Shown piece after piece: positions 3,342 through 58,967 of a stretch of DNA of 64,000 nucleotides. The position numbers and the translations under genes are program-made. Origin of the DNA: an uncultured Ignavibacteriaceae bacterium (GTDB taxonomy: Bacteria; Bacteroidota; Ignavibacteria; Ch128b); NCBI GenBank assembly GCA_964527925.1, contig CAZGQO010000001.1, positions 397,742-461,741 on the forward strand, written 5' to 3'. Numbering within the stretch: position 1 is the stretch's first letter; each line of letters opens with the position of its first letter. Under the pieces are notes generated by a model that was not told the DNA's origin, made no database searches, and worked only from the letters and a program-made list of their open reading frames with translations.

Positions 3342-3394
3342 AATGTTTAATTCTTTTCACTTCAACCAATCAAAAAAAATCTAATGGTAAATTC

Positions 3395-4372: not shown

Positions 4373-4380
4373 AAGAAATC

Positions 4381-5193
4381 TTACCAATGTTCTATCTTAA
4401 TTAAATTCTCGATTGGTCTATTAAGAAACATCTCCCCTACCTGCTTGAATCGATTTGGTAAATCACTTACATAGTAAACATAGTTTGGTTTTAATTTTGA
4501 TTGATTAATCAAATTATTTTCTTCCAGAATTTTCTTCACAGAGTGAGCTGTGGCAACTCCGCTATCGATTAATTGAACATTTTCTCCCATTATTTTCTGA
4601 ATTGTATTTTTAAGTAAAGGATAATGAGTACAACCCAGAATCAAAGTGTCAACTGAAAATTTTTTTAATTCACTTAAATATTCTTCTGCCGCAAGATAAG
4701 CTATCTTATGATTTGCCCAACCTTCCTCTACAATTGGAACAAACAAAGGACATGCTTTTCCATAAACCTCAATTGTACGATCCAATTTTTTGATTTCCAT
4801 CTCGTATGCACGACTCAAAATTGTTGCTGTTGTTCCAATTATTGCAATTCTTTTATTCTTTGTTACTTCAACAGCTTTTTCTGAACCTGGTTCTATCACG
4901 CCTGTGACAGGTAAATCAGTAATGCTTTTTATTTCATCAAGTGCAATAGCTGAAGATGTATTACAAGCAATCACAATCATTTTTACATTTTTAGAGAGGA
5001 GAAATTTTGTGTTTTGAATTGAATATTCTTTGATTGTTCTTTCAGATTTATTCCCATAAGGCACCCGTGCAGTATCTCCAAAATAAACTATATTCTCATT
5101 TGGAAGGATATTCATTAACTCTTTTACTACCGTTAAGCCGCCAATTCCAGAATCAAAAACACCAATTGGACTTTCGGGGGAGACTTTCATCAT
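4381..5193 (-). CDS. murI: glutamate racemase
   Basis: 270 aa with the IGVFDSGIGGLTV N-terminal motif and a second conserved Cys region (GCTHYP). Its stop overlaps the glnD start by 4 nt. Confidence 0.88.
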   Translation of the reverse strand: MMKVSPESPIGVFDSGIGGLTVVKELMNILPNENIVYFGDTARVPYGNKSERTIKEYSIQNTKFLLSKNVKMIVIACNTSSAIALDEIKSITDLPVTGVIEPGSEKAVEVTKNKRIAIIGTTATILSRAYEMEIKKLDRTIEVYGKACPLFVPIVEEGWANHKIAYLAAEEYLSELKKFSVDTLILGCTHYPLLKNTIQKIMGENVQLIDSGVATAHSVKKILEENNLINQSKLKPNYVYYVSDLPNRFKQVGEMFLNRPIENLIKIEHW

Positions 5194-7769
5194 GAAGAGG
5201 CAAAAGTCCTTTCAAAGTTTGAAAGTGCTGAAGTTAATTCTTTCTTGATGAACTCAAATTTGGAGGGCAGAATTTTTTGGAGATTTGAATCAAGAACATA
5301 AAAACTATCAAACGCACCATTTAACTTGGTTCCAATCTTCGCAAAGTAAATATTTAACTCCAACTCTGTAAGCTTCTTTGTGATCAAGTAGAGCAAACCA
5401 ATTCTATCTGATGCGTGAATATCAATTATGGTGTATCGGGGATGATTTTCAAAATTTACTTCAACACCAATGTATGAAATTAATTTTTTATCGATTCGTT
5501 TCCACTTATTGCGATGTTCTTCGAAAGCTTTTTCAAGATCATAATTTTGAAGTAAAACACGGGTTAGATTTTCAGCCAGTTCTTCAAAATGTTCTTCAGT
5601 CAATGGTTGGTGATTAATAAAATCTGTGATTTTGAAAGTGTCTATTATAATTCCATCCTTTCGTGTGAAAATGCTTGCATCGTGAATATTGCAATCGCTA
5701 ATCGAAATAGAACCACAAATTTTTGAAAGCAAACCTTTTGCATCTTTTGTGATTACAGTAAGCTGGGTATATTCTTCTGTATTGTTGTGAAGTATTGAAA
5801 GGACAAGACCTTTTTTTATTTCATCGATGTGAGATGCAATTTCATCTTCGGTGAAAGTGTATATGTAATTGACATCATTCATTAATTCGAGATGCTCAAA
5901 GTATTCCTTTTTGTCTATGGAATATTTTGAAAGATCAAGCTTTTCAAAATCGGGACTTAACAATTCTTCTGCACTGATATTGAAAAAAATCATTTCCTGT
6001 GTTTTTGAATACAAATCATCCAACAAAGAACTCTTCCATGATGTCCATAAACTTGGATTTACAGCTGAAAGGTCTGCATAAGTTAACAAGTAAAGAAAAT
6101 CCAGTTCTCTCAAATTCTTAAACTTTTCTCTGAAAGAATTAAGTATTGTTGCATCATTCAGATTTCTTCTAAACGCCGTCTGTTCCATCAAAAGATGATT
6201 TTCAACCAGAAACGACACTAGTTGTATTTCTTCTTCCGAGTAACCGAATCTTTGCATCACATTTTCAGCGATCTGTGCACCGATCAATTCATGTCCATAC
6301 TGTGTAATTGGTTTGGCAATGTCATGAAACAAAATTGCCAGTAAAAGCAACTCTTTATTTGCATATTTTCTGAATAGATTCCCAATTTGAGAGTTATCAA
6401 GTTCGAGATTATAAATATTTTTTATAGCCATTAATGTATGTTCATCAGTAGTGTAAATATGGTAGGCATCTGGTTGAAAGAAAAACTTAAGCTTATCAAA
6501 CTCTGGAATAAGTAAACCCAGAATACCGAGTCGATGCATTTGAAAGAGTACATCGCTTATATCATCATTTATTTGTAAGATTTTTCGAAATTCATGAATT
6601 ACATCGAGGTGAGTTGCTTCAGTGCCGTCAAGATAATCTAAACTCTTTTGAATTTGTTTCATCAACTCATTATTAAAGATTGCTTTGTATTGAGCCTGAT
6701 AATTAAAGACTTTTAATATCTGATCAAGTGAAAGATTTTTTCTGGTTTTTGACTTTATGAATCTTCCGCAAAGAGAATAATCTTCATCGAGTTCATAAGT
6801 ATTGAATATTTCGCAGGGAAAAATCAGTTGCAAAGCTTCTTTGGTGAAAAATTCTAAAGTTCTTGAAATAGTTAAAGTCGATTCAAATAAAATTCTCAAC
6901 AACTTATTGTTTGCCTCATCTATGTCTATAGAACCTGGTTCAAGAAATTTAGTCACTTTAATTTGTGATTGAAAGTCAAATCTATCACGATTATTTGAGT
7001 TGACAATATGAAGAGCATTTCTTAATCGTATCAAATAATCATAAGATGAAAAAATTGATTTCATCTCAGAAGAAGAGAACAAATTATTATTTAGTATTGA
7101 AAGCAAAAATTGATTTGTTCCGGTATCGTATTTATCAAAAGACGGAATTTCGTTGTTAATTAGATAATATAACCAGCTTGCGGAATGAAGATCTCGAATT
7201 CCGCCTTTTGTGTTTTTTAAATTCGGTTCGAGTAAAAATGGAGATTTCCCATAAGTAGTGTGTCGTTTATCTACATCATTTAGAATTAACTCGATTAATT
7301 TCTTCTTTAATTCAGAATTGATGATGTTTTTAACATTCTCCACAAATTTGAGAAAGATTGTTTTAGAACCGGAAATAAATCTCAATTCAAGTAATTGAGT
7401 AAACGAGGTCAAGTCATTCTCAGCGAATTCGTAAATCTGATTAAAAGTTCTGATCGAATGTGAAACATTTATTCGGTTATCCCACAGTTCCTGAAGAATT
7501 TTAGAAATAAATCCGCTGTTTTCTTCAATTGAGTTAGTAATAAATACAATATCAACATCAGAGAAAGGGGTTAATTCCATTCTGCTTAAACCGCCAGCTG
7601 CTGCAATTGCCAAATCATCAGGTGCATCTTTTGTTAGAAATTCAATTCTATTGTTAAATAATCTCGAGTATTGAAGAGAAAAATCTAATCCTGATTTAAA
7701 TTGATTAAATTCATCAATAAGTTTGGCAGCTTTTTTAATAAAATTTTCTTTCGAATCGTTCATACGCAA
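5190..7769 (-). CDS. glnD: [protein-PII] uridylyltransferase/uridylyl-removing enzyme GlnD
   Basis: 859 aa. It has an N-terminal nucleotidyltransferase motif (GGLSRMELTPFSDVDIVF), a central HD domain (HDIAKP...DEHTL) and two C-terminal ACT-like domains. Confidence 0.8.
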   Translation of the reverse strand: MRMNDSKENFIKKAAKLIDEFNQFKSGLDFSLQYSRLFNNRIEFLTKDAPDDLAIAAAGGLSRMELTPFSDVDIVFITNSIEENSGFISKILQELWDNRINVSHSIRTFNQIYEFAENDLTSFTQLLELRFISGSKTIFLKFVENVKNIINSELKKKLIELILNDVDKRHTTYGKSPFLLEPNLKNTKGGIRDLHSASWLYYLINNEIPSFDKYDTGTNQFLLSILNNNLFSSSEMKSIFSSYDYLIRLRNALHIVNSNNRDRFDFQSQIKVTKFLEPGSIDIDEANNKLLRILFESTLTISRTLEFFTKEALQLIFPCEIFNTYELDEDYSLCGRFIKSKTRKNLSLDQILKVFNYQAQYKAIFNNELMKQIQKSLDYLDGTEATHLDVIHEFRKILQINDDISDVLFQMHRLGILGLLIPEFDKLKFFFQPDAYHIYTTDEHTLMAIKNIYNLELDNSQIGNLFRKYANKELLLLAILFHDIAKPITQYGHELIGAQIAENVMQRFGYSEEEIQLVSFLVENHLLMEQTAFRRNLNDATILNSFREKFKNLRELDFLYLLTYADLSAVNPSLWTSWKSSLLDDLYSKTQEMIFFNISAEELLSPDFEKLDLSKYSIDKKEYFEHLELMNDVNYIYTFTEDEIASHIDEIKKGLVLSILHNNTEEYTQLTVITKDAKGLLSKICGSISISDCNIHDASIFTRKDGIIIDTFKITDFINHQPLTEEHFEELAENLTRVLLQNYDLEKAFEEHRNKWKRIDKKLISYIGVEVNFENHPRYTIIDIHASDRIGLLYLITKKLTELELNIYFAKIGTKLNGAFDSFYVLDSNLQKILPSKFEFIKKELTSALSNFERTFASS

Positions 7770-37275: not shown

Positions 37276-37943
37276 TTATAAGAGTTTTATGAAAAAATTA
37301 CTTAGTAAGATTGAACCTGGAAGTAAATAGTATTTGATGACTTTGAGTTAATCGGATAAAATAAATTCCACTTGAAAGATTTGAGTAATTAAAAATTATC
37401 GGCGTAGTGAATGTGATTTTACTGAAGATTTTTTTCCAAGGATGTTGTAAATTTCAAAATTCATTTCTCCCCTGAAATTATCATTTGGTCCATCGATTTC
37501 AATATTTTTTGATTTTAAATCATTCCGTAGGGAAAACTTGATTGGCGAATTATTCCCTTCATCGACAATTGATTGTTGATAAAAGATATGAATAGTGTCC
37601 GAATAAGCAAATGTCCCATCGTTATCGATTTATTTCAGTCGGTAAAAATAATTGTCTGTTGAAGGTAAGGTAGAGTCAACATAAACATAGTGCTTGGGAG
37701 AATTTGAATTTCCACTTCCGGGTACAAAATCGATTGAATTAAAAATCAAATTTCCATCACCACGTTGAATTTCGAATCCATAGTTATTGACTTCGGTTGC
37801 AGTCCCCCAACGCAATAGAATTCCATTGCTCAATGCAAAACCTTCAAAATATAATAATCAATTGGGAGAATATCATTCTTGATTTGACCATTTAGATTAA
37901 TCTGAAATATTAATCCCAGAATTAGTGTAATCATTTTATTCAT
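37276..37943 (-). pseudogene. decayed small secreted T9SS-CTD protein gene (frameshifts plus in-frame TAA)
   Basis: Its ATG overlaps the TGA of the upstream giant gene (ATGA). Frame A gives the signal peptide MNKMITLILGLIFQINLNGQ... and stops after 37 codons. A -1 shift in a T4 run restores ...FEGFALSNGILLRWGTATEVNNYGFEIQRGD...NYFYRLK. An in-frame TAA (expected CAA/Gln) is followed in frame by IDNDGTFAYSD...SPIKFSL...NFEIYNILGKK, a T9SS CTD start. The remainder of the CTD is scattered over other frames. Confidence 0.6.
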
Positions 37944-40900
37944 CTTACAATTGCCATTTTTTGAATGACTGATTTAGTTTTGTCACCTTTTTTTGCAATT
38001 ACTTTATATAAGTAAACCCCATTGCCCAATAAATCGCCATCTTCATCTCTTCCATCCCAGAAAATTTTGTTGAAGTTTGTAGTCAGATCAAAGGAGTTTA
38101 ATTTCAATTCTTTAACCATTCTTCCAGCGACAGTATAAATTTTGATTGTTAGTTCATCGGGAATTTGAGTTAAAACAAAAGTGAAATAAGTTTGATTAGA
38201 AAATGGATTCGGGAAGTTATAAACCCTCAGAATTTCCATATCAGCAGTCACTCTGAAATATTTATCGAGTACAGGCTCGGATTGAATTCGACCATAAACA
38301 TCTTTAGTAAATACTTTTAAGTTATGATCACCTTTTGAAAGTTTGACCGGATAAAGAATTGAAATTTTTCTAATTGTTGAATCGTGATCATAAACCAAAT
38401 TACTTGAATAAACTCTCGAGACATCGAGATAAATTTGAATTGCAGATGTATCAGTAACGGGGAACCATATTGGATAATTAAACTCCAATTGAATTGATGC
38501 ATCAGGTTCTACATAATCCCAATCACGAATTTCCTTGTTATTTATTTTCAAAAGAACAGATGCACTTGAAATTGAAGTTGTTGTATCCTTTTTTACATAG
38601 AAGTTCTTAATGTAAAAGTTATTGTTTTCAAATAATTCATTAATCTGATTATCAACATCAATAGATAAACGAAAACTAAATTCACCAAAGCCATCATAAA
38701 TCTTATTCATGTAAGTATGAGAAAGAGAGATAAAAGATCCCGAACTTAGATTTGAAATTAAAGTATCTATTAAAATGAAATTATAATTATCACTTTTGGT
38801 TAATTCAAGTAGAACTCTAAAACTATCAGTTATGGATTGACCAACATTGAAAATTTTAGCATAGTAGTTAATTGATTCTCCCTGAGAAATTGAATCTTTA
38901 TCCAATGAAATGGTCTGATAATTAACTGCCAGTTCTGGTGCAAGGTCGAATTCACATCCAAGTGAAAAAATTTCAGGGGTTTGTTTTGACTCGTTCGCAT
39001 ATAATTTTGCGATGAGTTTTAATGATGGATAGACTTTTGCATCAACAGATGATAGTGATATTGAATCTCTGTCAGTTAGTAAATTCCATAAAGTATCAAC
39101 TAATCCATCTTTTCTAATTCCTAATGGAAGATAAATTATTCTTGAATTTTCAGGACGCAAAGTTTCAAGCTTTATATATTTCCAGTTTCCCGAGTTTGAA
39201 ATAACAGGAAACACTACATATCCTGAATCAAAAGTCACATTTTTTGAAATCTCAATTTGTGCAACACCAGTGAACAATTTTTTAGAATCTTCAGGAACAG
39301 AACCAATTGGCGCACCTTTTTTACCAAGAATACACCAACTCTCACGATATTTAAGGCTGTCAATGTATTTGCTTCCTAACAGTTTGATAGTGTTCCTTAC
39401 ACTTGTGCTCATGATATTCTGTTGTGCATCCGCTGAAACTGTCATTGCAAGCAAGGTATTTGCAGGTAAGCTATTAATGTAATTGATTAACGAATCTCGA
39501 ACTCCAACATCTGGTACTTGAAAGTATCTTATATTGGATGGTCTTAAAGTAATCGAATCAATAATAGAAGTTGCAAGACCCCAATAGTAAGTATTAGGTA
39601 GTTGCTCATAACCATTCAATTGTATTGAACCGAATGAACCATCATGAGCACCTGCTGATTGAATTCTTAGAGTTGTTCTTTCAGAACTTAATTTCCAGCT
39701 CATTGAGACGGTATCAAAGTAAGTATTGTTATAAACAAAATCGGTTTTATTATCTAGTGGTCTATCAGTATAAATTTTATAGATAGGGAATTTTTGAATA
39801 AAAGATTTTGGCTTAGCCCAGTAAGAAGATAAATTATCAGTTCGCATTCGATAAAAATATCTTTGATTAGGTAACAAATTCGGTAGAGGAATTCTGGTAA
39901 TTAAAGAATCAAAATTTTTATAAACCCCAATGGGTTGCTCAAAATTTTCTGATGAAGATATTTCCAACAAAATTCTTTCATTATCATTTAATCGTCTAAT
40001 AAATGGATTCAATACAATTAATGTGTCCCGATATGTATTGTAATAATCAGATGCTTCAATTGAACTAAGTGAGGTTGAATTTATTACATAATCGAATTCT
40101 GCTAAATTATCATCCTCATAAATCTCATTGACTAAATTTTGCGGATCAAGTATAATTTTGATAATTCTGTTCCCAATGATATTATTCACAGGAATTGAAA
40201 TAAAAAGTGTGTCGAAATTTTTTGTAAAAGGAATATAAAATTCTGAATTGAATATAATTGAGTCACCCGAACTATCCTCTAATCTAATTTTGATCGAATC
40301 ACCAGTAACAATACCAAGATTCGAAACAATTACTCTGAATTTCACAGAATCCATTTGATCGTTAGGTTGGTCTGTTATCAAAGAAATTTTTGATTCATTT
40401 ATTGAAAGATTTGGTTTTTCTGGAATTGGAAAACCTATTATTGGATCCCCAAATAATAAATTACAATAAGTAAATACAAGATTTACATCACTTAAACCGG
40501 TCTCATTTAATTGTCTGAATTTCGAAAGTGTATGTATTCTTCCAATTGTTTTAATCGAATCTCTTAGTAATGCCTCATAGAAATATTTTGGAAATCTCAA
40601 TGATGTTGAAAGATATCCCCAACTTGAATTTCCCAGATAAGAGATTGCCTGTCCGTTCGGTGATTGACAGATAAAAATTTCTCCAAAAGCATCTACATCC
40701 GGTTCTGCAAATTTCCCTGTTGAACAACCAAAATCAGTTATAAGCGGGAATCTATCATTGTATTTATTTTTAAGATGTTCCACTTCAGAAATTGAATTAT
40801 CCCATGTCCTTGTTCCACTATGACCAATGTAAGAGATAAATAATCCTCCTTCATCAATTTTTTGTTGTACTTCTTCTAAAGTATAAAGACCAAAGTTTGT

Positions 40901-43321
40901 TGGAGGATTAAAAGTTTTATAGAAATGTGTTCCAAGTCCATATAAAGGTGAAGTTCTGACTAAATTATTTAACAAATAATTATTCGTTGCAATAATCTGT
41001 GCAACTTCATTGGGTTTATTACCATCCCCACCACTAAAGATCAAGAATAGTTTATTAAACTCGTCAAATTTTCTACTCACATAAGTCTGGTGTTTCTGAA
41101 GGTAGAAAAGAGCCTGATTATCGTTATTTGCTGGAATTCTTCCTACAAACATCTGTGGAAAATAAACATTGATTGTATCCCACATTACATACCATATATC
41201 ACTCACAGGAGAACCAAAAGCAGTAACAATATTTTTCTTTCTGGGAATTGGTGTGGGAGAAACAACATCTTTATAATCAAAATTTGCATCTCCAACAATT
41301 GTAAGGAAACTTGGTTTTGGTGGAGTCCAATTTTTATAAGCACTCATCAGAAAACTTTTAATTGCCTCAGCGGAAAGCATACCAAATGAAAATTCATCAT
41401 ATATATCTTCATCAAAAACAAGCTCAACTCTTACATTGTAATTATTTTGAATAAAATTTTTGTAAACATTCACTGAACTTTCTAAAATTTTATTTGATAT
41501 TAAAATGTAATCAGCTCCTCGAGAAGGATTCCTGAGGTTTGTAAAAGTTTTAAGCTTTTTGAAGATAGGTTGATTGGTTTTAGAAGATGTTGTTATGAAG
41601 TATTTATCACCACCTTTTATAGTATCAATAAAATAAATTGTAGATGGATTACTTCCTTGCACTTGAAAATTTACAAACTTTTTAAATTCAGGATATATCT
41701 TATAAACAATCAAGTTGTTCACATCAATAATATTATCAACTCTAATAACTCTTTCAGTTTGAAGTACTGAATCGGGAATTATTATCATCAAAGTATCATT
41801 AACAGCGATATTTCGTCTATAATAATCAACATCCACCCAGTCAATTAAAGATTGATGAAATGACGCTTCTGATGGTAATCCAAATATTCTGACTGTATTT
41901 GTTCCTTGAACAAGCTGGTTGGAACTAAATGTCTTTGAGAAGTTTACAGTTTGCTTGAAATTATAAATAATTGTGTCTTGAGATGTTGTGCTGTTTAAAC
42001 TTATTCCGTTTTTATGAGCACTCGTTCCACCACTTGATGCGTAACTAATTAAACGAGCTATAACATATACAGGTGAGTTGGTCAAAAAATCTCTGGCAGT
42101 AAATGTGACTGAAGTCGAACTAGAATTTTCAATAACCAACCATGTAAAAGTTTTATTCTCCTGCCAGAAAGGCAGCTGTACTCTCGGAACAACGGCATCG
42201 TAATACCAGAGTCTAACATCATTTTCAAGATGAATTTTTACTAAATGAGAATTGACCGTATCTGTTGAAGATGAAATATGAGTATTCACAAGATTTATTC
42301 TTTTCCCATCCGTTCCTCCCCAAGTTAACCAGACAATCGATGTATCTGTGTATCTATTTAAATATTGAATATAATCCTGCCCAATACCAACAATCTGTCT
42401 GTAATTCTGGTAAGTATAATTGCGTTCAGCATAAAATTCTATGTAATCACCAGGATTAAATTGTTCATCATCTTCACCATAAACAAAAATTAGCTGCTCT
42501 TTACCACGATTAAAAAGTTTGAAAGTTTTAGGATTGATGTTTGATAAATTTATTCCCCAACTCACTAAATCATCATAAGTTATCCTGTAAAGATTATCTG
42601 AAGCTATCGCAAGTTTTAGATATTGTTTAGAATAATCTATCCAATTCCCTGTTGTATCGTTTGAAGTAAGATGTGGATTAAAAGATTTATACTTAATTGC
42701 ATCGTCAAAATTTATAATCACATCTCTTAACATTTCATCAAATGGAGTCAATGGATTATTATTTCTGGGATATGGTTTATTTGCATCAACCATTTTTACA
42801 CTTATTATGCATGAATCAATTATAACGAGTTTTTTCTCTGAGATTGAATATCGATGTGTGTTTAATTTGATTACTGCCACATAAAAATCTCGTATCCATG
42901 TATAGCCTACTAATTCAATTTCATTTTCAGGATAGAACGATTTATAAAATAAAGATTCATCAAAATTTGTTGATGCATATCTAAGGGTCGAATCATTTTC
43001 TAACTCAACTTCAGGATTTGTTGCTAAGAGAACATTTTCTTTTTCGGTTGTGAATTTTTCTGAGATGGATATATCAATTTTTGCTTCAGGAGGAATAGCG
43101 AGGTAAAATACTCTTGATGGAAGCTTTGGCAACCCTGGTTTTGATTCGTCTAACTGATAAATGAAATCGATTAGTTTGTAACCGTCTTTATCAGATTCGA
43201 TATATGCTTCTGCTGAGTTTATAAATTTTAATACAAAACCTTCCTCATTCTTGCTGATAATTTTCGTCTGGCTAAATAAAACAGCAGGTAAGATCAACAA
43301 AATCAGTGATAAATTTCTCAT
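37940..43321 (-). CDS. peptidase C25 (gingipain/PorU-like) family protein with T9SS C-terminal sorting domain, 1793 aa
   Basis: Signal peptide MRNLSLILLILPAVLFSQ. A caspase-like His/Cys dyad sits in C25-type context and spacing (SYIGHSGTRTWDN ... LITDFGCSTGKFAEPD, about 32 residues apart, encoded near 40700-40830). The C-terminal 90 aa (NFPNPFSNQTYFTF...KIYTVAGRMV...GVYLYKV...KMAIVR) are a canonical T9SS CTD. Confidence 0.75.
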   Translation of the reverse strand: MRNLSLILLILPAVLFSQTKIISKNEEGFVLKFINSAEAYIESDKDGYKLIDFIYQLDESKPGLPKLPSRVFYLAIPPEAKIDISISEKFTTEKENVLLATNPEVELENDSTLRYASTNFDESLFYKSFYPENEIELVGYTWIRDFYVAVIKLNTHRYSISEKKLVIIDSCIISVKMVDANKPYPRNNNPLTPFDEMLRDVIINFDDAIKYKSFNPHLTSNDTTGNWIDYSKQYLKLAIASDNLYRITYDDLVSWGINLSNINPKTFKLFNRGKEQLIFVYGEDDEQFNPGDYIEFYAERNYTYQNYRQIVGIGQDYIQYLNRYTDTSIVWLTWGGTDGKRINLVNTHISSSTDTVNSHLVKIHLENDVRLWYYDAVVPRVQLPFWQENKTFTWLVIENSSSTSVTFTARDFLTNSPVYVIARLISYASSGGTSAHKNGISLNSTTSQDTIIYNFKQTVNFSKTFSSNQLVQGTNTVRIFGLPSEASFHQSLIDWVDVDYYRRNIAVNDTLMIIIPDSVLQTERVIRVDNIIDVNNLIVYKIYPEFKKFVNFQVQGSNPSTIYFIDTIKGGDKYFITTSSKTNQPIFKKLKTFTNLRNPSRGADYILISNKILESSVNVYKNFIQNNYNVRVELVFDEDIYDEFSFGMLSAEAIKSFLMSAYKNWTPPKPSFLTIVGDANFDYKDVVSPTPIPRKKNIVTAFGSPVSDIWYVMWDTINVYFPQMFVGRIPANNDNQALFYLQKHQTYVSRKFDEFNKLFLIFSGGDGNKPNEVAQIIATNNYLLNNLVRTSPLYGLGTHFYKTFNPPTNFGLYTLEEVQQKIDEGGLFISYIGHSGTRTWDNSISEVEHLKNKYNDRFPLITDFGCSTGKFAEPDVDAFGEIFICQSPNGQAISYLGNSSWGYLSTSLRFPKYFYEALLRDSIKTIGRIHTLSKFRQLNETGLSDVNLVFTYCNLLFGDPIIGFPIPEKPNLSINESKISLITDQPNDQMDSVKFRVIVSNLGIVTGDSIKIRLEDSSGDSIIFNSEFYIPFTKNFDTLFISIPVNNIIGNRIIKIILDPQNLVNEIYEDDNLAEFDYVINSTSLSSIEASDYYNTYRDTLIVLNPFIRRLNDNERILLEISSSENFEQPIGVYKNFDSLITRIPLPNLLPNQRYFYRMRTDNLSSYWAKPKSFIQKFPIYKIYTDRPLDNKTDFVYNNTYFDTVSMSWKLSSERTTLRIQSAGAHDGSFGSIQLNGYEQLPNTYYWGLATSIIDSITLRPSNIRYFQVPDVGVRDSLINYINSLPANTLLAMTVSADAQQNIMSTSVRNTIKLLGSKYIDSLKYRESWCILGKKGAPIGSVPEDSKKLFTGVAQIEISKNVTFDSGYVVFPVISNSGNWKYIKLETLRPENSRIIYLPLGIRKDGLVDTLWNLLTDRDSISLSSVDAKVYPSLKLIAKLYANESKQTPEIFSLGCEFDLAPELAVNYQTISLDKDSISQGESINYYAKIFNVGQSITDSFRVLLELTKSDNYNFILIDTLISNLSSGSFISLSHTYMNKIYDGFGEFSFRLSIDVDNQINELFENNNFYIKNFYVKKDTTTSISSASVLLKINNKEIRDWDYVEPDASIQLEFNYPIWFPVTDTSAIQIYLDVSRVYSSNLVYDHDSTIRKISILYPVKLSKGDHNLKVFTKDVYGRIQSEPVLDKYFRVTADMEILRVYNFPNPFSNQTYFTFVLTQIPDELTIKIYTVAGRMVKELKLNSFDLTTNFNKIFWDGRDEDGDLLGNGVYLYKVIAKKGDKTKSVIQKMAIVR

Positions 43322-49948: not shown

Positions 49949-50712
49949 CTCTTAATTACCACATCTTCTGGTACCTCTGGATATTGAATAACAGTCTCCT
50001 TATTGATATAAATTTCTGAAAAATTTATTTCAAGCCAATTATCTTTCTTTAAATCAATAAATCTAATTTTACTTGGAAATCGAATCCCATTTTTATCCTT
50101 AATGAAACCATTTAATGTCATATTAAGAGTAAATTCACTCCCTTTGATCATTTTAATTTCCGATATCATCCTTGAAGATTTATCAAAATAAAAGTCGATC
50201 CTCCTATCATTTTTAATTTTGGAAAACCTATAAAAATTTCCACTATCAATAACAGGTGAACTCGAATCAGAGTTAATCTGATCAGGATTGATATAACCAA
50301 GTAATAATGAGTAAATCAAATTTTTGTTTATTTCATCCGCAAAATATTTTCTCAATTTGCTTGAACTAAAACTTGCATAGATCAATTGGTTATTAAAATT
50401 GTTATGAATCATTATTGAATCATCGTTCAAATAAAGATTGCCAACATATATACCCAATGGACCCCAGAGATCAATACGTGCCCGGTTGTCTTTAAGAGTT
50501 ATCATTTCGAATTCTAACTTGACTGGAAAATTTTTGGTCGATAAAGAAATAGTTCCCGATGCAGAAATTGAATTGATACTTTCAAAATTTGATTTATACT
50601 CGTTAAGTAATTCATCGAAACTTATTGACTCATAAGTAACTTTTTTCGAAGTGCTGCATGAAATCAATAACGAAAGAGCAAAAATGACTGATAAATTAGA
50701 ACGAATATTCAT
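49942..50712 (-). CDS. outer-membrane lipoprotein, DUF4292/LolB-like
   Basis: 256 aa with lipobox LLISC and a size and context (between a TPR protein and the EnvC-like M23 peptidase) matching what I believe is a conserved Bacteroidota TPR/DUF4292/M23 trio. Confidence 0.5.
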   Translation of the reverse strand: MNIRSNLSVIFALSLLISCSTSKKVTYESISFDELLNEYKSNFESINSISASGTISLSTKNFPVKLEFEMITLKDNRARIDLWGPLGIYVGNLYLNDDSIMIHNNFNNQLIYASFSSSKLRKYFADEINKNLIYSLLLGYINPDQINSDSSSPVIDSGNFYRFSKIKNDRRIDFYFDKSSRMISEIKMIKGSEFTLNMTLNGFIKDKNGIRFPSKIRFIDLKKDNWLEINFSEIYINKETVIQYPEVPEDVVIKRW

Positions 50713-52520
50713 TTAATTTCATTCAATTTTTGTTTGATAGATTCATTTTCTGGATTGAGTTTTAATGCCAGTTCATAATACTCTTTTGCATCTTCGACCT
50801 TGTTCAATTTTATTGAAACATCACCCATATGTTCGAGTATTTCAGCACTCGGTGAACCTTGATCAATTGCAAGTTTGATATACTTAGCAGCGGTTTCATA
50901 ATCACCCATTTGAAAGTAAATCCAGCCGAGTGTATCAAGGTAAGAATCAACCAGCGAATCCTTTTCCAGTGATTTTTTTGAAAGCTCTAAAGCTCTTTCG
51001 AGATTATATTTCCGCTCTGCAAGGCTATAGGCATAATTATTCATTATCATTGAATCATCAGGATATACCTTCAATGCTTCTTCATACATCGAATCGGATT
51101 CAATGTAATAACCAGCATCTTTTAATAACATAGGCAAATTAACCAGTGCAGCGTGATTTTTACTATCAATCTTAAGCGCATTTCGACAATATTCAATTGC
51201 TTCGTTATAATTTTTAATTTTACCAAGGGTATAACCCATCAATACTAACAAATCAGGATTTTCAGGACTAAGTTCGATAGCTTTCGAAAAATATTTTGCC
51301 GCTTGATTGTAATCAGAAATCTGTAAATAAGAAAAACCAAGAGTTGAGTTGAAATCAACATCGTTTTCATAGTAAGAAATCAAAGGCGTTAATAATCGAA
51401 TTGAATTTTCATAATTATTATTTCTATAAATTCCATAAGCAATATTCTTAAAATTTTCTCTTGAGACTTTATCACCAAGAACAAAATTCATCAACTTATC
51501 TTCTATATTCTGATTATCAATCAATTTTAAAGCAAGAAGAAAACTTGATATTAGTGTATCGTTATTTTTGAATCTCTTCTCGAACCTTTCAATTAATGAT
51601 TTACGACTTACCGAATCTTTATAAGATTTTTCAAAAATCATATCATACATACCAATACTAAATAAATTACTGTCTGATAATGATATTTCAGAAAAAGCTT
51701 CATCTATGTGAAAAAATGCATCTGTGTATTTTTTTTCATCCAATAAAAGCTGAGCTATTAAAAAATTAAGAAGCGAATTTTTTGGATATTTCTCATACCA
51801 ATCAAATGCAACTTTCTTTGCTTCTTCATTTTTATTTCTAATGTAATAGAGAGTTAAAAGTGTTGCTTTCCAATTAAAATTACGCGGTTCGATATAGATT
51901 AATGACTTTAAAACTTTTTCACATTTATCATAATCTGATTGTGAGATGTAATACTCATAAAGTTCCCCCAAAGCTCGAGTATTTTCTGGATCTATTTCAA
52001 GAATTTTTTCATAAATTTTTTCTGTTGTATCAGTATCTTCCGAAGAATATAAACTTGCAAGAACAAAATAAGCATCGATATAAGTTGAATCGTTCTTTAT
52101 TATTCGATGTAACAAATTAGCAGCTTTTCTAAATTCATAAATCTGATAATAAAATTGACTTGCACCAAACAAATAATATGGTTGAAGAACCGAATCAGGA
52201 TAAGAAAGTAATTTTTCAAAATACTTCTGAGCAAGTTCAAATTTTTCAATCTTCAATAGTTCATTTCCAAGTGCAAAATATATGGCAGGATTTTCTTCAA
52301 ATATTAAAGCTTCTTGAAATTCAAGAATTGCTTTTTCTGATCTTTCTTGAAGCGAATAAGTAAGTCCATCAATAAAATGTCTCTTGGCTTCAATGTTTTT
52401 TATGGATATTAAAGCATCTTTATAGTACTTGTTGTCCTTATAAGTTTTTTCTTGAGAAACCAAGAAACCATTAATTGAGACGAATATTATTAGAAAAAAT
52501 ATTAAGTTTTTCATGTACAA
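50709..52520 (-). CDS. tetratricopeptide repeat protein
   Basis: 603 aa with a signal peptide followed by more than 10 TPR-like repeats (the AxxYxxLG..Y..A....A pattern recurs). Confidence 0.75.
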   Translation of the reverse strand: MYMKNLIFFLIIFVSINGFLVSQEKTYKDNKYYKDALISIKNIEAKRHFIDGLTYSLQERSEKAILEFQEALIFEENPAIYFALGNELLKIEKFELAQKYFEKLLSYPDSVLQPYYLFGASQFYYQIYEFRKAANLLHRIIKNDSTYIDAYFVLASLYSSEDTDTTEKIYEKILEIDPENTRALGELYEYYISQSDYDKCEKVLKSLIYIEPRNFNWKATLLTLYYIRNKNEEAKKVAFDWYEKYPKNSLLNFLIAQLLLDEKKYTDAFFHIDEAFSEISLSDSNLFSIGMYDMIFEKSYKDSVSRKSLIERFEKRFKNNDTLISSFLLALKLIDNQNIEDKLMNFVLGDKVSRENFKNIAYGIYRNNNYENSIRLLTPLISYYENDVDFNSTLGFSYLQISDYNQAAKYFSKAIELSPENPDLLVLMGYTLGKIKNYNEAIEYCRNALKIDSKNHAALVNLPMLLKDAGYYIESDSMYEEALKVYPDDSMIMNNYAYSLAERKYNLERALELSKKSLEKDSLVDSYLDTLGWIYFQMGDYETAAKYIKLAIDQGSPSAEILEHMGDVSIKLNKVEDAKEYYELALKLNPENESIKQKLNEIK

Positions 52521-54561: not shown

Positions 54562-54599
54562 ATCAAAAAAATAAAAGCTCGCACTTGATGGCGAGCTTT
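54562..54599 (-). terminator. rho-independent terminator downstream of the OMP/lipoprotein cluster
   Basis: On the minus strand AAAGCTCGC-catcaagt-GCGAGCTTT is a perfect 9-bp stem, followed by TATTTTTTTGA. Confidence 0.7.
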
Positions 54600-54620
54600 C
54601 ATGATAGATTTGATCAATGC

Positions 54621-56042
54621 TTAAAACCTGAATGTGGTCGAGAAAACTACATTGGTCAATCTCAAATCTTGGTAGGTTCTCGAAACACCTGAGCCGTAAT
54701 TATCACCAATGTTTTTCCATTTACCAAAGATATAGGCAAGATCAAAAGAAAATCCTTCACTTGAAATATAACCCAATCCAAATGTGAAATACTTTCTATT
54801 AAAATCAGAAGGATCATTTTTGAAAGGAGAGTTTTTAACGAAATGCCCGCCTCTAATTCTAAATCCTGAATTGAACAAATTATATTCAGCACCAAGTGAA
54901 TAATCCATCACACTTCTAAAGAGTTGTTTTATATCTCGGTTGTTTTTAAGAATCTGAGTAGCTGAGAGTCGTTTGAATTCCATTTGAGTGTAATCGATAA
55001 GATTAATATCAGCACTAATTAAAAATCCTAATTTAGATACAGAAAAACCTAAACCGAATTCAAACGGTGACCAGATATCATATTCAATTTTACTTGATAA
55101 TGGCGGGTCAATATCAGCAGAAAAACCTGTACCGAATTTTGAAACACCATCAACTAAATAATTTTCTTTTACAGTGTAGATAGTTGGAAATTTTACAGTT
55201 GCACCGAATCTTAGAAAATCTTTTACCCTATACATCATACCCACTTTGGCAGTGAACCCTGTCAGTTCCCATTGCAGAGTTTCTTCAAGTTTGAAGTATT
55301 GAAAATCTGCTGTTCTTGAATCATCTGGATCAGTTTTAATCGTTAAGCCATAAATATTATTAATATCTTCTTCTGAATATTCTCTGGTTCTTTCAAATTC
55401 ACCGCTAATAATTCCCAGTGTTGCACCAAAGGATAAATTTTTTGCAACTTCAATTGCACCACTAAATACCCAATTATTTTCTCCACCAGAACTCAAAATT
55501 GAACCCGATTGAAATAAGTTTCCATTAATCGGAGTATTTTCACCAGTTTGATCAGTTAAGTACAACAGATACGAAACATCACCTTTGCCTAAAAGAGCTT
55601 GAATCATTGAGGTATTTGTGTTATTAAATCCTTCGAAGTAAAGAGCATCATTGAAATTATTATTTCTATTATAGCCGAAAGCAAGAACGAAACTACCTCT
55701 GATTACGGGAAATGGAAAAACAAATCCAAGATCACTTAATTCTGTTGCGCTACTTGAAAAAATGGAAGTGTTTCCAAAAAATGTTGTGTTGTTTTCCAAA
55801 GATTGATAACTCAAGCCCCCATGAAATTCCATTCTTCTTAATTGAAAAAGTCCAGCTGGATTGTAAATAGTTGCAGAATAATCGTCGCTTACTCCAATGA
55901 AAGCATTGCCCAAACCAAGTGGTCTTGCTCCAAGTTTGAAAGGTTGAAAGCTTAATCGCAGTGCATCGTTAAAATTCTGAGCTGTTGATATACTTGAAAT
56001 AAAGAAGATTATAGTAAACAAAATTTTTGTTAGTGTTTTCAT
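54621..56042 (-). CDS. FadL/PorV-like outer-membrane channel protein
   Basis: 473 aa with a signal peptide. The N-terminal motif LGLGNAFIGVSDDYSATIYNPAGL parallels FadL-family G.AY.G.AIADDA....NPA. The protein ends with a terminal aromatic (STTFRF). Its start overlaps the upstream lipoprotein gene's stop by 4 nt. Confidence 0.6.
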   Translation of the reverse strand: MKTLTKILFTIIFFISSISTAQNFNDALRLSFQPFKLGARPLGLGNAFIGVSDDYSATIYNPAGLFQLRRMEFHGGLSYQSLENNTTFFGNTSIFSSSATELSDLGFVFPFPVIRGSFVLAFGYNRNNNFNDALYFEGFNNTNTSMIQALLGKGDVSYLLYLTDQTGENTPINGNLFQSGSILSSGGENNWVFSGAIEVAKNLSFGATLGIISGEFERTREYSEEDINNIYGLTIKTDPDDSRTADFQYFKLEETLQWELTGFTAKVGMMYRVKDFLRFGATVKFPTIYTVKENYLVDGVSKFGTGFSADIDPPLSSKIEYDIWSPFEFGLGFSVSKLGFLISADINLIDYTQMEFKRLSATQILKNNRDIKQLFRSVMDYSLGAEYNLFNSGFRIRGGHFVKNSPFKNDPSDFNRKYFTFGLGYISSEGFSFDLAYIFGKWKNIGDNYGSGVSRTYQDLRLTNVVFSTTFRF

Positions 56043-56554
56043 CTTTTTCTCTCACCTGAATTATTTCTGGATTTCGGGGTTTCGGATTCTCTGGATCTAC
56101 GTTCCTCTTTTCGGTCATTTACTTGATTAGATGAACCAGAACTTGAAGACCCACTCGTCTGTCCTGATGCATTAATAGAAGGACTCGAAAAAGTCGAAGG
56201 TGCAGAGCTTCTTCCACCATCCTGATTCCTTAATCGAGTTGCGTCGTTGTTTCTACTTTCAAAGATATTTGGTTCAGAACTTAAATAAATATCTCTCCAC
56301 CACGGTGATGTATAGTAAGGTGAAGTATAAATGTAAACTGGTTCATTGTAGTATGGTGATGAACTATACGAATGAAAACTTAAACCAAAGTTTTCAAGTT
56401 CATATTCAGAATGACAGGAACTACAATCGTTATAAAACTTTACTCTTTGAGTGTATCCATCTCTTTCTATTTCTGGATGCTTAATTATTGTATAACAGCT
56501 AAGCAAAGTTAGACTAACAAAAATCATTATGATAACTTTATTAATCAATTTCAT
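56039..56554 (-). CDS. lipoprotein with aromatic-rich block and Ser/Arg-rich disordered tail (paralog A; unknown family)
   Basis: 171 aa with lipobox LLSCYT, the Tyr/Trp/Pro-rich block SPYYNEPVYIYTSPYYTSPWWRDIY, the motif NDATRLRNQDGGRSS, and a Ser/Gly/Arg low-complexity tail. Confidence 0.55.
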   Translation of the reverse strand: MKLINKVIIMIFVSLTLLSCYTIIKHPEIERDGYTQRVKFYNDCSSCHSEYELENFGLSFHSYSSSPYYNEPVYIYTSPYYTSPWWRDIYLSSEPNIFESRNNDATRLRNQDGGRSSAPSTFSSPSINASGQTSGSSSSGSSNQVNDRKEERRSRESETPKSRNNSGERKR

Positions 56555-57924
56555 CTATCTCTCCTTCTATCTGTAGCCGGTGCTCGATTTACTGGTGGAG
56601 GTGAAGTTCTTTGTGGCGGAGTATATGTTGGATAATTATTTCTGCTTGGTGACTTATATCTTGGCGATTCATATCGAGGTGCTTCATACCTCGGAGATTC
56701 GTTTCTTCCCTCATAACGAGGAGTTGAAGAATTTTGTCGACGATTATCGTTATTAAAATTTACTCGAGATTTATTTTCAGTATTTGAACTATTGTTTTCT
56801 CTAATTCTCGGAACATACTCTCTTCTTGGTACTTCATACTCAATTCGAATTCTTTCTTTGCGATAGCTTTTATCAAATTCTTTGTCAATTGAAGTATTGT
56901 TATCATTCAATCGTTTATTTACATCGTCCGTTTTTCTGTTAATAATAATTTCTCGATCTAAACCTGGTGAATATGATTCAAATTTTCTAACTGGAGGTTG
57001 TTCGTTTTTTCGATCTGTATTGGGAGTTCTATCAGGAGTACGTGTTCCTTTTTCCTGTACATCTTTTCGATCTGGCAATCTTGGGTTTTGTTTATTCCTA
57101 TCATCTATTCGCGGAGTTTTTGATTCATTAACTCTTTTTCTTTCTTCCAGAATAATTGTTTTTGAATCCCTATCTCTTACTGAACCTGGATTTTTTTGAG
57201 TTGGAGTTCTAAGGTTTATTTCTCCCTCTCTTGTTCTAACATTCCTTGAATTAATATCTCTCAAGCCTGGTATATCATTATTTCTTGTTCTCGATCTAGC
57301 ACTTGCAGTCTGCAGATTCAAATCCCGACCCCAATTTCCAGTAATTATACTGCCTGATCTTCCACCGTCATTATTTCGTAATCTTGTAAAATCATTTTTT
57401 CTATACTGAACAATGGGTGGATATGTCCCACCATACCAGTAAGGGTCATACCACCAATATGGTGGAAGATAGAATGGATTATAAAAGGGATCATAGTAAG
57501 CAAATCCATACCAAACTCTATAGCAAGAATAATAACCCCACCACCATGGTAAGTAATAAGTTCTGCAAAATGTATAAGGATAATAGAAATAATCAAAATA
57601 CCACGGATCGTAGAAGACAGCACCGCCAACAACTATTGTAATTCCTGGATGATAAAATTTATAAGATCTGCGATGACGAGGGTAATAGTAAGTTTCTTCT
57701 TCTTCGTACTCAACTTCTCCATCTGTTGACTCATATGAAGTATCTTCTATTATTTCTCCTTCTTTTTCGACTCGTTTTTCAATGATGACTCTTTTTCTTT
57801 CGTTACGGTAAGAATAATCATCATCCTCCAATTTCAATTGGGTATAACAACCACTGAAAGTAAATAACCCCAGCAAAATCAAAACCCAAATAAATTTTTG
57901 ATTATTTTTCATCACAACCTCCAT
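56551..57924 (-). CDS. lipoprotein with extreme Tyr/Trp/Pro-rich block and Arg/Asn-rich disordered tail (paralog B; unknown family)
   Basis: 457 aa with lipobox FSGCYT. The block YDPWYFDYFYYPYTFCRTYYLPWWWGYYSCYRVWYGFAYYDPFYNPFYLPPYWWYDPYWYGG is followed by NDFTRLRNNDGGRSG, shared with paralog A. The roughly 250-aa R/N/D/K/P-rich tail ends in the tandem repeat SPRYEAPRYESPRYKSP. Confidence 0.55.
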   Translation of the reverse strand: MEVVMKNNQKFIWVLILLGLFTFSGCYTQLKLEDDDYSYRNERKRVIIEKRVEKEGEIIEDTSYESTDGEVEYEEEETYYYPRHRRSYKFYHPGITIVVGGAVFYDPWYFDYFYYPYTFCRTYYLPWWWGYYSCYRVWYGFAYYDPFYNPFYLPPYWWYDPYWYGGTYPPIVQYRKNDFTRLRNNDGGRSGSIITGNWGRDLNLQTASARSRTRNNDIPGLRDINSRNVRTREGEINLRTPTQKNPGSVRDRDSKTIILEERKRVNESKTPRIDDRNKQNPRLPDRKDVQEKGTRTPDRTPNTDRKNEQPPVRKFESYSPGLDREIIINRKTDDVNKRLNDNNTSIDKEFDKSYRKERIRIEYEVPRREYVPRIRENNSSNTENKSRVNFNNDNRRQNSSTPRYEGRNESPRYEAPRYESPRYKSPSRNNYPTYTPPQRTSPPPVNRAPATDRRRDR

Positions 57925-58080: not shown

Positions 58081-58857
58081 TTAGAATATCATTGAAGCAA
58101 ATTCAAGTCGAAAAGCTCTATCCCCGCCATAAGTATCGTTAATCCTATTCGAAGTGAGATTTCTTATATCTAACCCAATGGTTAATCCCTTACCAATGGA
58201 CCACCTAACACCTGCATTAAAATAACCTCTTCCTTTTCCAACCTTACTCTCATCGTCATTGAGAGCAAAATCATATTCTACAACAACAGAGACTTGACTC
58301 CCGATTGTTTTCTCTAATCCAAGCATAAGATTTAAGTTTTTATCTTGATCTGAAGTTTCAAGGCTGTAGTTTAAAGAACCATGAAGACTAAGCAATCCAA
58401 GAAAATTAAAATTCTTGCTGCTTGCTACAAAAAATCCAGGTGACTTTATTTCGAACCTTCTCAGTGTATCAATGAATTCACCTTTCCCTTGAGAATCGAA
58501 ACCAATTAAAATTGCTGGAAAGTTGGGCTCTTCATCAAAAATTCTTAATCGAACATTTACGCCAGGATACTTATAAAATTTTAAATCTCCCTTACCAATA
58601 AAATTTGCAGCACCATAAGAAATCCCAAAATTAAATTGATCAAAAATTCCAACGTCTATCTTTAAAGAAAGCACTCCGCCTGGCAATTGTTCTGAAAAAA
58701 TGGAGAACATTCCTTTTTTCAATATTCCTGCAGTGTTCATATCGACTACATATCTTGGTTCAATATCAGATTTTGCTCCAGCACTTCCCTGACCAAAAAT
58801 ATTTCCATTGAAAATCAACAAAAGAATAAGGGAAACAACCAACTTTAAAAATTTCAT
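58081..58857 (-). CDS. outer-membrane β-barrel protein (porin-like, unassigned)
   Basis: 258 aa with signal peptide MKFLKLVVSLILLLIFNGNIFGQ, alternating-residue β-strands, and a C-terminal FASMIF ending with a terminal Phe. Confidence 0.5.
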   Translation of the reverse strand: MKFLKLVVSLILLLIFNGNIFGQGSAGAKSDIEPRYVVDMNTAGILKKGMFSIFSEQLPGGVLSLKIDVGIFDQFNFGISYGAANFIGKGDLKFYKYPGVNVRLRIFDEEPNFPAILIGFDSQGKGEFIDTLRRFEIKSPGFFVASSKNFNFLGLLSLHGSLNYSLETSDQDKNLNLMLGLEKTIGSQVSVVVEYDFALNDDESKVGKGRGYFNAGVRWSIGKGLTIGLDIRNLTSNRINDTYGGDRAFRLEFASMIF

Positions 58858-58967
58858 AGTATTACTCCTGAATTGATTTGAAAATCTCTACTTAATGTAA
58901 ACTTCACGAATTAAAATCACAAAATTTTAGAAATATCTTTTCACCAAAAGTTATTAAATCTGTTTAA

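Follow-up and report, generated by a model that had tools for sequence, protein, structure and literature searches.

A lipoprotein family with an aromatic block and a cationic tail, encoded beside a FadL-fold barrel in Ignavibacteria

What might two overlapping genes contribute to a bacterial envelope when their products are lipoproteins made up largely of aromatic residues and a long low-complexity tail? The question is raised by a stretch of 64,000 nucleotides from an uncultured Ignavibacteriaceae bacterium (assembly GCA_964527925.1, contig CAZGQO010000001.1, positions 397,742 to 461,741; hereafter the window, in whose numbering coordinates are given unless another locus is named). An earlier reading of these letters (the original prediction) had picked out two minus-strand open reading frames (ORFs) of 171 and 457 amino acids that overlap by 4 nucleotides, and both are present as described. 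They lie in a module whose genes are all on the minus strand and follow one another in the order: a 258-amino-acid outer-membrane beta-barrel resembling the N-terminal part of YjbH and carrying a signal peptide (58081..58857); the large lipoprotein, of an unnamed family that we call 'CYTQ' (56551..57924, ORF of 457 amino acids); its small paralogue (56039..56554, 171 amino acids); a FadL-fold, 14-stranded outer-membrane barrel of 473 amino acids that is BamG/FadL-like (54621..56042, the last gene); and a terminator-like hairpin (54571..54602, minus strand; 12 bp and a T-run, 19 nucleotides past the barrel stop codon). The two lipoprotein ORFs share the 4 nucleotides ATGA, and the small ORF also overlaps the 473-residue barrel gene by 4 nucleotides, being translationally coupled to both neighbours. 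In the comparisons set out below with BamH, amyloid subunits, OmpA/Pal/Lpp-type tethers, and cytochrome domain families, the lipoproteins belong with none of these, and they have no relative of known function in sequence or structure; a module of two barrels with one or two disordered lipoproteins matches no described system. The mechanism that we infer for the module is far less firm.

The two lipoproteins and their family

The low-complexity composition of both products, together with the fact that a public gene caller passed over one large orthologue, could be taken to mean that these are non-coding or antisense ORFs thrown up by low-complexity DNA. We give this explanation virtually no chance. 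Homologues of both proteins align over their full length (24 clusters for the large protein and 14 for the small, at 90% identity), and the orthologues of the large protein are 30-85% identical from end to end with the reading frame kept. Nei-Gojobori counts of the window large protein against five orthologues gave proportions of nonsynonymous differences (pN) of 0.08-0.18 against proportions of synonymous differences (pS) of about 0.7 in the aromatic block, and of about 0.4 against about 0.65 in the tail, indicating strong purifying selection on the block and a looser constraint on the tail. Ribosome-binding sites are present for the lipoprotein genes, and start, ribosome-binding site, and lipobox are conserved. 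An antisense artefact is ruled out by pN values far below pS and by opposite-strand ORFs that are short and unconserved across the lipoprotein genes, and the size of the family (below) argues the same way; the view in the original prediction that this is not a random ORF is thus borne out by full-length conservation and purifying selection. The orthologue that was passed over is an intact ORF of 443 amino acids (4129..5460 of locus L013, on a 6.9-Mb contig), and the public call there also gives the small paralogue a false upstream extension in a different frame; low complexity apparently makes the family hard for gene finders, and it is therefore probably under-annotated. The longest large ORF in the window begins at ATG 57924 (MEVVM...), but its true start is probably the second ATG (57912, Met5), because a GGAGG lies 6 nucleotides upstream and all homologues begin there, giving a protein of 453 rather than 457 residues.

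The large protein opens with a signal peptide and lipobox (FSGC-YT; 57847..57924, this and the following features on the minus strand) that end at the lipidated Cys26, followed by an invariant Tyr-Thr-Gln (C26, Y27, T28, and Q29 are all invariant in the alignment of close large homologues). An acidic head (residues 27-78; 57691..57846; net charge -11) leads into the aromatic block (residues 79-174; 57403..57690), which is 45% Tyr, Trp, or Phe, 57% when Pro is included, and is the most strongly conserved part of the protein. The RKNDFTRLRNNDGGRS motif comes next (57355..57402; R175, R181, L182, R183, G187, and R189 invariant in close homologues), and the rest is a polycationic, compositionally disordered tail (56554..57354), the segment of residues 175-457 containing 18% Arg and 12% Asn and having a net charge of +25. 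Tandem PRYE(S/A) pentapeptide repeats lie within the tail (56645..56724) and are kept as PRYE-type repeats in orthologues; the tandem peptide repeat of the original prediction is a genuine repeat at the DNA level (period 15, 3.7 copies, 56645-56700, by Tandem Repeats Finder [TRF]). The aromatic segment, put earlier at about 45 of 70 residues, was counted as 46 of 70 Tyr, Trp, Phe, or Pro at residues 105-174 (36 of 70 without Pro), and the next-best 70-residue segment among all ORFs of at least 150 amino acids in the window reaches 19 of 70.

Paralogy of the two lipoproteins is supported by BLASTP (E = 8e-10) and by reciprocal profile matches within the window (E = 2e-11 and 7e-7). The lipoboxes and the Tyr-Thr that had been seen to follow them are there in both (LLSC-YT in the small protein, FSGC-YT in the large); by a pattern-level test each lipobox Cys (LLS-C20 and FSG-C26) stands after a hydrophobic h-region, and it is invariant in the alignments of close large, close small, and diverse small homologues. 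The motif said to be shared also occurs in both, as NDFTRLRNNDGGRS in the large protein and NDATRLRNQDGGRS in the small (56207..56248, minus strand), the common part being RLRNxDGGR, and the small protein ends on RNNSGERKR (56042..56068, minus strand), a second motif-like copy. The description of both tails as highly basic holds for the large protein (+25) and fails for the small, whose tail is mainly Ser-rich (25%) with a net charge of only +6. In the close small homologues R163, N165, S166, G167, E168, R169, and K170 are invariant; divergent small paralogues have lost the internal RLRN motif and kept the RNNSGER-type C-terminal ending. Cys20, Tyr21, Pro27, and Trp85-Trp86 are invariant across 12 diverse small paralogues, and about 35 residues separate the lipid anchor of the small protein from its aromatic block.

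With a Wimley-White interfacial energy of -33.5 kcal/mol, the aromatic block of the large protein is the most favourable 96-residue stretch in the window, and its mean Kyte-Doolittle value is negative (hydrophilic), a combination that suggests an interface-seeking rather than a membrane-spanning segment. Charge-hydropathy analysis puts head and tail in the disordered class and leaves the block out of it. AlphaFold2, given an alignment of 22 sequences, predicted only the signal-peptide helix of the large protein (mean predicted local distance difference test [pLDDT] 42), a model too poor to be usable for a fold search.

To see how widely this architecture occurs, we took a profile of the N-terminal 200 residues of the large family and searched 1.84 billion representatives with it exhaustively. 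The search returned 285 representative clusters at E<=1e-3 and 80 at E<=1e-10, so that the search for homologues proposed along with the original prediction yields a sizeable family. Members with a named source are metagenome-assembled genomes of Ignavibacteria, Ignavibacteriales, or Melioribacteraceae; others lie on metagenome contigs of higher GC content, and two distant loci have GC contents of 0.43 and 0.55. Architecture was counted on the listed representatives of at least 250 amino acids, and is fixed: signal peptide and lipobox, CYTQ, an acidic head, a block of about 100 residues that is 45-50% Tyr, Trp, or Phe, an RLRNxDGGR-type motif, and a cationic tail of about 200-280 residues ending in Arg. 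Of 119 full-length representatives, 118 have GCYT, in the form GC(Y/F)(T/S), after the signal peptide; the head, from the Cys to a YRRY-type motif, has a median length of 57 residues and a net charge of -11; the block has a median of 33.5 Tyr, Trp, or Phe per 70 residues; and the tail has a median length of 193 residues and a net charge of +26. Of 143 members, 51 carry the strict NDGGR-type motif (against 0.02 per shuffled sequence) and 101 end on Arg; many tails have S/T-P-P-K/R-type repeats. We considered whether the C-terminal motif is the internal NDGGR motif over again and rejected this (the strict pattern is at the C-terminus in 6 of 143 only); the general C-terminal feature is Gly or Ser followed by two or three Arg. 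A family-wide disulfide in the aromatic block was likewise rejected, because the number of Cys after the lipobox varies (none in 34 members, one in 48, and two in 54).

Comparison with described families was negative throughout, and the original statement that the architecture matches no named family stands for Pfam, NCBIfam, and PDB sequences. Pfam and NCBIfam scans of both lipoproteins and ten diverse relatives gave no family match (a weak Haem_bd match aside, discussed below), a PDB sequence search with the large-family profile gave none, and tblastn against plasmids gave none. Amyloid subunits (curli CsgA/B, Fap) were not matched in Pfam or NCBIfam by any of about 16 members scanned, and the module has no Csg or Fap genes. 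No OmpA_C-like or Lpp coiled-coil domain was detected in the lipoproteins by Pfam, NCBIfam, or the PDB profile, so that any peptidoglycan binding would be electrostatic, via the tail.

The barrels and the conserved gene neighbourhood

We scored 15 sequence sets by profile, namely the window and 14 fetched loci (two of which, L005 and L006, are apparently the same sequence). A FadL-like barrel lies directly downstream of the lipoprotein or lipoproteins in all 15, confirming the co-occurrence with flanking outer-membrane protein (OMP) genes that had been proposed as a check; in 11 the gene directly upstream of the large lipoprotein is that of the 258-residue YjbH-like barrel, and 12 contain the small paralogue. 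The barrel linkage is kept where flanks differ (L005, L009, and L010) and at a GC content of 0.55 (L011), and two look-ups begun from distant barrel homologues return the same module. Upstream cysS is common to many of the loci, as are, on the downstream side, rsgA and genes for a TPR protein, DUF4292, and an M23 peptidase.

The 473-residue barrel passed the Pfam model Toluene_X (PF03349; 46 bits, cut-off 29.7), and matched the NCBIfam equivalog model for BamG (NF053685) at 64.2 bits (E = 1.1e-17, cut-off 250) and PorV_fam at 55.9 bits (cut-off 90). Its AlphaFold2 model (31-sequence alignment) has a pLDDT of 90.5, and the strands and N-terminal helices of the model match FadL structures with TM-scores of 0.6-0.7. 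Foldseek searches of the PDB with this model returned BamG of B. thetaiotaomicron (9hiv_F, 1.5e-20), BamG of P. gingivalis (9hjm_F, 1.4e-17), E. coli FadL (5e-17), and BamG of F. johnsoniae (9n2d_B, 1.2e-16), as well as TodX and CymD; a PorV-like function was rejected on the poor structural match to PorV (8gl6_F, 3e-6, TM 0.36-0.45). A sequence profile of the barrel family also found 9hiv_F first in the PDB (4.9e-5), single-sequence PDB searches with both barrels giving nothing useful. The hatch motif NPA(G) is invariant in the barrel alignments (N61, P62, A63, and G64), and the chain ends on its last strand. As modelled, the protein is a FadL-fold barrel somewhat closer to BamG than to the transport FadLs, with membership of BamG not established. 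An invariant Gln stands at the end of the signal sequence in both barrels (Q22 and Q23), and the mature chains therefore probably begin with Gln, which would fit the 'Q-rule' described for signal-peptidase-I substrates of Bacteroidetes, a rule reported not to extend to the whole Fibrobacteres-Chlorobi-Bacteroidetes (FCB) group (PMC5837995).

These matches could point to an accessory module of the machinery for assembling beta-barrels (BAM), in which the barrel would be the Ignavibacteria BamG or a paralogue of it and the lipoproteins would stand in for BamH, aiding the assembly of OMPs or lipoproteins. The barrel's best NCBIfam match is BamG (E = 1e-17), as are its best PDB profile match and its top two Foldseek matches (the B. 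thetaiotaomicron and P. gingivalis proteins), and the neighbours (TPR protein, DUF4292, and M23 peptidase) are of an envelope-biogenesis type. Its conserved N-terminus exceeds that of E. coli FadL by about 7 residues. The N-terminus of B. thetaiotaomicron BamG is about 12 residues longer than that of FadL (PMC12578637). BamG is a FadL-like, non-transporting barrel that binds the lipidated N-tail of its partner lipoprotein, and in many FCB genomes, that of I. album among them (IALB_1455/1454), its gene neighbours the BamH gene (PMC12611786; PMC12578637), the pair being reported as conserved in six of the seven other FCB phyla (PMC12611786). We nevertheless consider a BAM role unlikely: 64 bits is far under the 250-bit equivalog cut-off, FadL is an almost equal structural match (5e-17 vs 1.5e-20), BamH is a folded surface protein with an export signal whereas these lipoproteins have neither a predicted fold nor an export signal nor similarity to BamH, and I. 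album has an assigned BamG/BamH pair, which may or may not be this locus.

A second alternative is uptake or handling of hydrophobic compounds or lipids. The barrel would be a working FadL-type channel, and the lipoproteins would receive or chaperone hydrophobic or aromatic substrates, or mislocalised lipids, at the inner leaflet, in the manner of MlaA-OmpC. The Toluene_X match above cut-off, the invariant NPA(G) hatch, the fold shared with FadL, TodX, and CymD, and the strongly interface-seeking aromatic block are all consistent with it. A polycationic tail of 200-280 residues and an acidic head have no obvious role in a carrier, however, no fatty-acid or aromatic-catabolism genes lie nearby, and the YjbH-like barrel is left unexplained; FadL systems are not known to need a lipoprotein partner. 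Taken together, this makes uptake an unlikely role on balance.

The upstream 258-residue barrel is well conserved (46-76% identity). All six orthologues tested match Pfam YjbH (PF06082; best E = 3.2e-7), the match covering only profile positions of about 11-105 (approximately 95 of 658); the window copy reaches 12.7 bits (cut-off 24), and the PDB profile matches of this barrel to OmpG are weak (0.17). Directly upstream of it, most related loci encode a protein of 119-128 residues with an N-terminal membrane helix (L002 6682..7041, L008 6664..7044, L012 6774..7142, L013 2837..3196, and L014 2892..3278). The corresponding gap in the window (58858..58967) is only 110 nucleotides long, and the gene has therefore been lost there.

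The small paralogue bears a feature absent from the original prediction: CSSCH, a CXXCH c-type haem-attachment motif, at residues 44-48 (56411..56425, minus strand), preceded by His26-Pro27 (56474..56479, minus strand), which is invariant in close homologues. CxSCH and His26-Pro27 are invariant in 15 of 15 close small homologues, and CXXCH and His26 occur in 11 of 12 diverse small-paralogue lineages, the exception being the L005 lineage, in which both are lost. No cytochrome family in Pfam or NCBIfam matches the small paralogue, apart from a weak Haem_bd match of one orthologue (E = 0.089). Judged from the motif, the small paralogue probably carries one covalent haem in most lineages. It is a longer step to a trans-outer-membrane redox module that would have the small lipoprotein serve as a barrel-docked monohaem cytochrome, a 'split' version of the Cyc2-like porin-cytochromes, and the large protein as scaffold. 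Conservation of the motif at the frequencies just given, the 4-nucleotide overlap with the barrel gene, the single Haem_bd match, and the richness of nearby Ignavibacteria loci in multihaem cytochromes favour this idea. Against it, the small paralogue is missing from three of the 15 loci and CXXCH from the L005 lineage, so that a central part for haem in the module is excluded; CXXCH occurs in none of the large family members; unlike an open porin of the Cyc2 kind, the barrel is FadL-type and has a hatch plug; and one haem cannot span the membrane. We therefore regard a redox module as very improbable. A literature search on Cyc2 and Ignavibacteria found only general background on extracellular electron transfer. 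Large multihaem cytochromes with a Por_Secre_tail (the C-terminal sorting domain of type IX secretion) lie a few kb from the module in two of the fetched loci (L007 364..4652 and L012 1..1064).

Several other neighbours of the module were recorded. A PAS/HAMP histidine kinase and a sigma-54-dependent response regulator are encoded upstream in three loci (L005 4445..7242, L009 4364..7182, and L012 2128..4967); this pair may regulate the module or may be mere shared synteny. In the most divergent locus, L010, the barrel is followed by a 706-residue TPR protein (3378..5498) with a GWxTD domain and a faint match to TPR_Slam. Three genes downstream of the FadL-like barrel gene, the window encodes a conserved TPR protein of 603 residues (50709..52520, minus strand), which matches the Pfam CcmH/CycH TPR domain (59 bits, cut-off 42), although cross-matches among TPR domains are common and this one may mean little.

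Orientation in the envelope and a tentative role

Which way do the lipoproteins face? The original prediction had left a surface and a periplasmic scaffold side by side. In Bacteroidota, surface export is signalled by two or more acidic residues among the six positions after the lipid-anchor Cys (PMC12578637). Positions +1 to +6 of the window proteins read YTQLKL (large) and YTIIKH (small) and contain no acidic residue, and none is present there in 122 of the 142 members of the large family or in any of the 14 of the small; this places the lipoproteins on the periplasmic side if the export rule carries over to Ignavibacteriota. The CXXCH motif, which would be matured in the periplasm, was counted for the same orientation. 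Placement at the surface is accordingly not favoured, the export signal being missing from most of the family.

The composition of the proteins can nevertheless be read as that of a sticky surface or secreted matrix: the lipoprotein would be exported by way of the barrels, with its Tyr/Trp block self-associating in an amyloid-like or adhesive manner and its Arg-rich tail binding minerals, extracellular DNA, or acidic exopolysaccharide outside the cell. An extreme Tyr/Trp/Pro content combined with an Arg-rich tail resembles adhesive or phase-separating sequences, the S/T-P-P-K/R-type tail repeats resemble SPKK DNA-binding motifs, and the YjbH family is annotated as exopolysaccharide-related. 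Set against these resemblances are the missing Bacteroidota-type export signal (122 of 142 members), the lack of similarity to curli, Fap, or secretion systems in Pfam and NCBIfam, and a YjbH match that in the window copy is partial and weak; moreover, a FadL-type lumen plugged by its hatch domain is not known to serve as a conduit for protein. A matrix role thus appears quite unlikely.

The reading that we favour, tentatively and in the expectation that it may well prove wrong, is that the lipoproteins are periplasm-facing outer-membrane partners of the barrel, with the aromatic block at the membrane interface and the cationic tail bound to anionic envelope material. The lipidated CYT(Q/I) N-terminus and the aromatic block would keep the protein against the outer membrane's inner face or the barrel wall; the invariance of CYT(Q/I) after the anchor could be rationalised by the binding of a partner's lipidated N-tail in BamG. 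From there the disordered cationic tail would project into the periplasm and bind peptidoglycan, anionic lipid, or acidic polysaccharide, working as a tether or spacer, and the small paralogue would act as an accessory subunit.

Several points weigh against this reading. Its main weakness is that the link between lipoproteins and barrel is one of gene adjacency and translational coupling alone, and part of the synteny may simply be inherited, since the cysS and rsgA flanks are common and the genomes related. The polyanionic partner is proposed from charge alone, there being no recognisable peptidoglycan-, lipid-, or polysaccharide-binding domain, and the surface-export rule is established in Bacteroidota, not in Ignavibacteriota. 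The barrel that is assumed to behave like BamG scores far below the equivalog cut-off (64 vs 250 bits), and I. album already has a listed BamG/BamH pair (IALB_1455/1454, Liu et al.) that may or may not be this locus. As to disorder, the low pLDDT of the large protein may reflect a shallow alignment of 22 sequences, and the aromatic block, whose composition is 'ordered' and whose constraint is the strongest, may take up a fold within a complex. Literature searches for a disordered lipoprotein paired with FadL, or for envelope proteomics of Ignavibacteria, found nothing relevant.

A bolder version of the periplasmic reading, and to our minds a distinctly improbable one, is an unrecognised envelope machine of Ignavibacteria-type bacteria (FCB group) in which a FadL-type barrel captures, or is threaded by, a near-unstructured lipoprotein. 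Through its Tyr/Trp block and poly-Arg tail, the lipoprotein would make up a multivalent network in the periplasm or a tether from outer membrane to cell wall, and the monohaem paralogue would render that network redox-responsive. By analogy, the Tyr-Arg composition would then correspond to the 'sticker' grammar of phase-separating proteins. If true, this would be a new structural principle for holding the Gram-negative envelope together or sensing its state.

Should the more modest reading hold, with lipoproteins as periplasm-facing partners of the barrel, many Ignavibacteria-type bacteria would build their outer membrane partly from a lipoprotein class unlike any described, the lipoprotein-docking, non-transport role of FadL-like barrels would be extended in the superphylum, and lineages without Lpp would gain a candidate tether between outer membrane and cell wall. 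The family also lends itself to testing how disordered, Tyr/Arg-rich proteins work in the periplasm, and a family model, of which Pfam and NCBIfam have none, would improve the annotation of several hundred protein clusters.

Elsewhere in the window, the product of 37940..43321 (minus strand) is probably a large protease, secreted or at the surface; its 1793 residues include a Peptidase_C25 domain of gingipain type with the propeptide, ILEI, CARDB, and, at the C-terminus, a FlgD_ig-like domain. None of the Rfam families attains its gathering score in the 64 kb, indicating that the window holds no tRNA or rRNA genes and no known riboswitches.

Comparison with known systems

Against the classical FadL, TodX, and CymD channels, the module barrel has a Toluene_X score above cut-off, a conserved NPA hatch, and TM-scores of 0.6-0.7. 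Classical FadL channels work alone, whereas this barrel invariably comes with one disordered lipoprotein or two, and in most loci with a second, small barrel as well. The YjbEFGH/GfcABCD operons resemble the module in mixing a YjbH-family barrel, lipoproteins, and a low-complexity protein, and all tested orthologues of the 258-residue barrel match the N-terminal part of Pfam YjbH. They differ in that the module barrel has 258 rather than about 700 residues, the match spans approximately 95 of 658 profile positions with the window copy below cut-off, and no YjbF/YjbG/GfcC-like, Wza, or Wzc-type genes were seen in the module.

LpoB and RcsF, like the module lipoproteins, are lipid-anchored outer-membrane proteins whose long flexible segment reaches across or through envelope layers, and RcsF is also held by beta-barrels. 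Proteins of this type end in a small folded domain on linkers of 30-60 residues, whereas the large module protein has about 430 mature residues nearly all without predicted fold, an extreme aromatic block, and a tail of about +25. NHBA of Neisseria is an Arg-rich, polyanion-binding lipoprotein, a likeness to the module tail, whose Arg-rich disordered sequence suggests polyanion binding, and indolicidin-type Trp/Pro/Arg-rich peptides partition into membrane interfaces, a likeness to the aromatic block; but NHBA is surface-exposed with a C-terminal barrel domain, indolicidin is a secreted peptide of 13 residues, and neither has a sequence relationship to the module lipoproteins. The Cyc2 porin-cytochromes share with the module a single CXXCH near the N-terminus of a secreted polypeptide and an outer-membrane barrel; in the module the haem-motif protein and the FadL-type barrel are the products of separate genes, and the paralogue with the motif is dispensable in some lineages.

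The nearest analogy is the BamG-BamH pair (PMC12611786; PMC12578637). BamH differs from the module lipoproteins in being a folded two-domain surface protein, with a carbohydrate-binding-like fold and an acidic export signal, whereas they have no predicted fold (pLDDT 42 for the large protein), no such signal, and no similarity to it, and the module barrel scores 64 bits against the 250-bit cut-off. What the two have in common is the gene of a FadL-fold, 14-stranded barrel set beside a lipoprotein gene, and it is among the BamG chains that the module barrel finds its best structural and profile matches.

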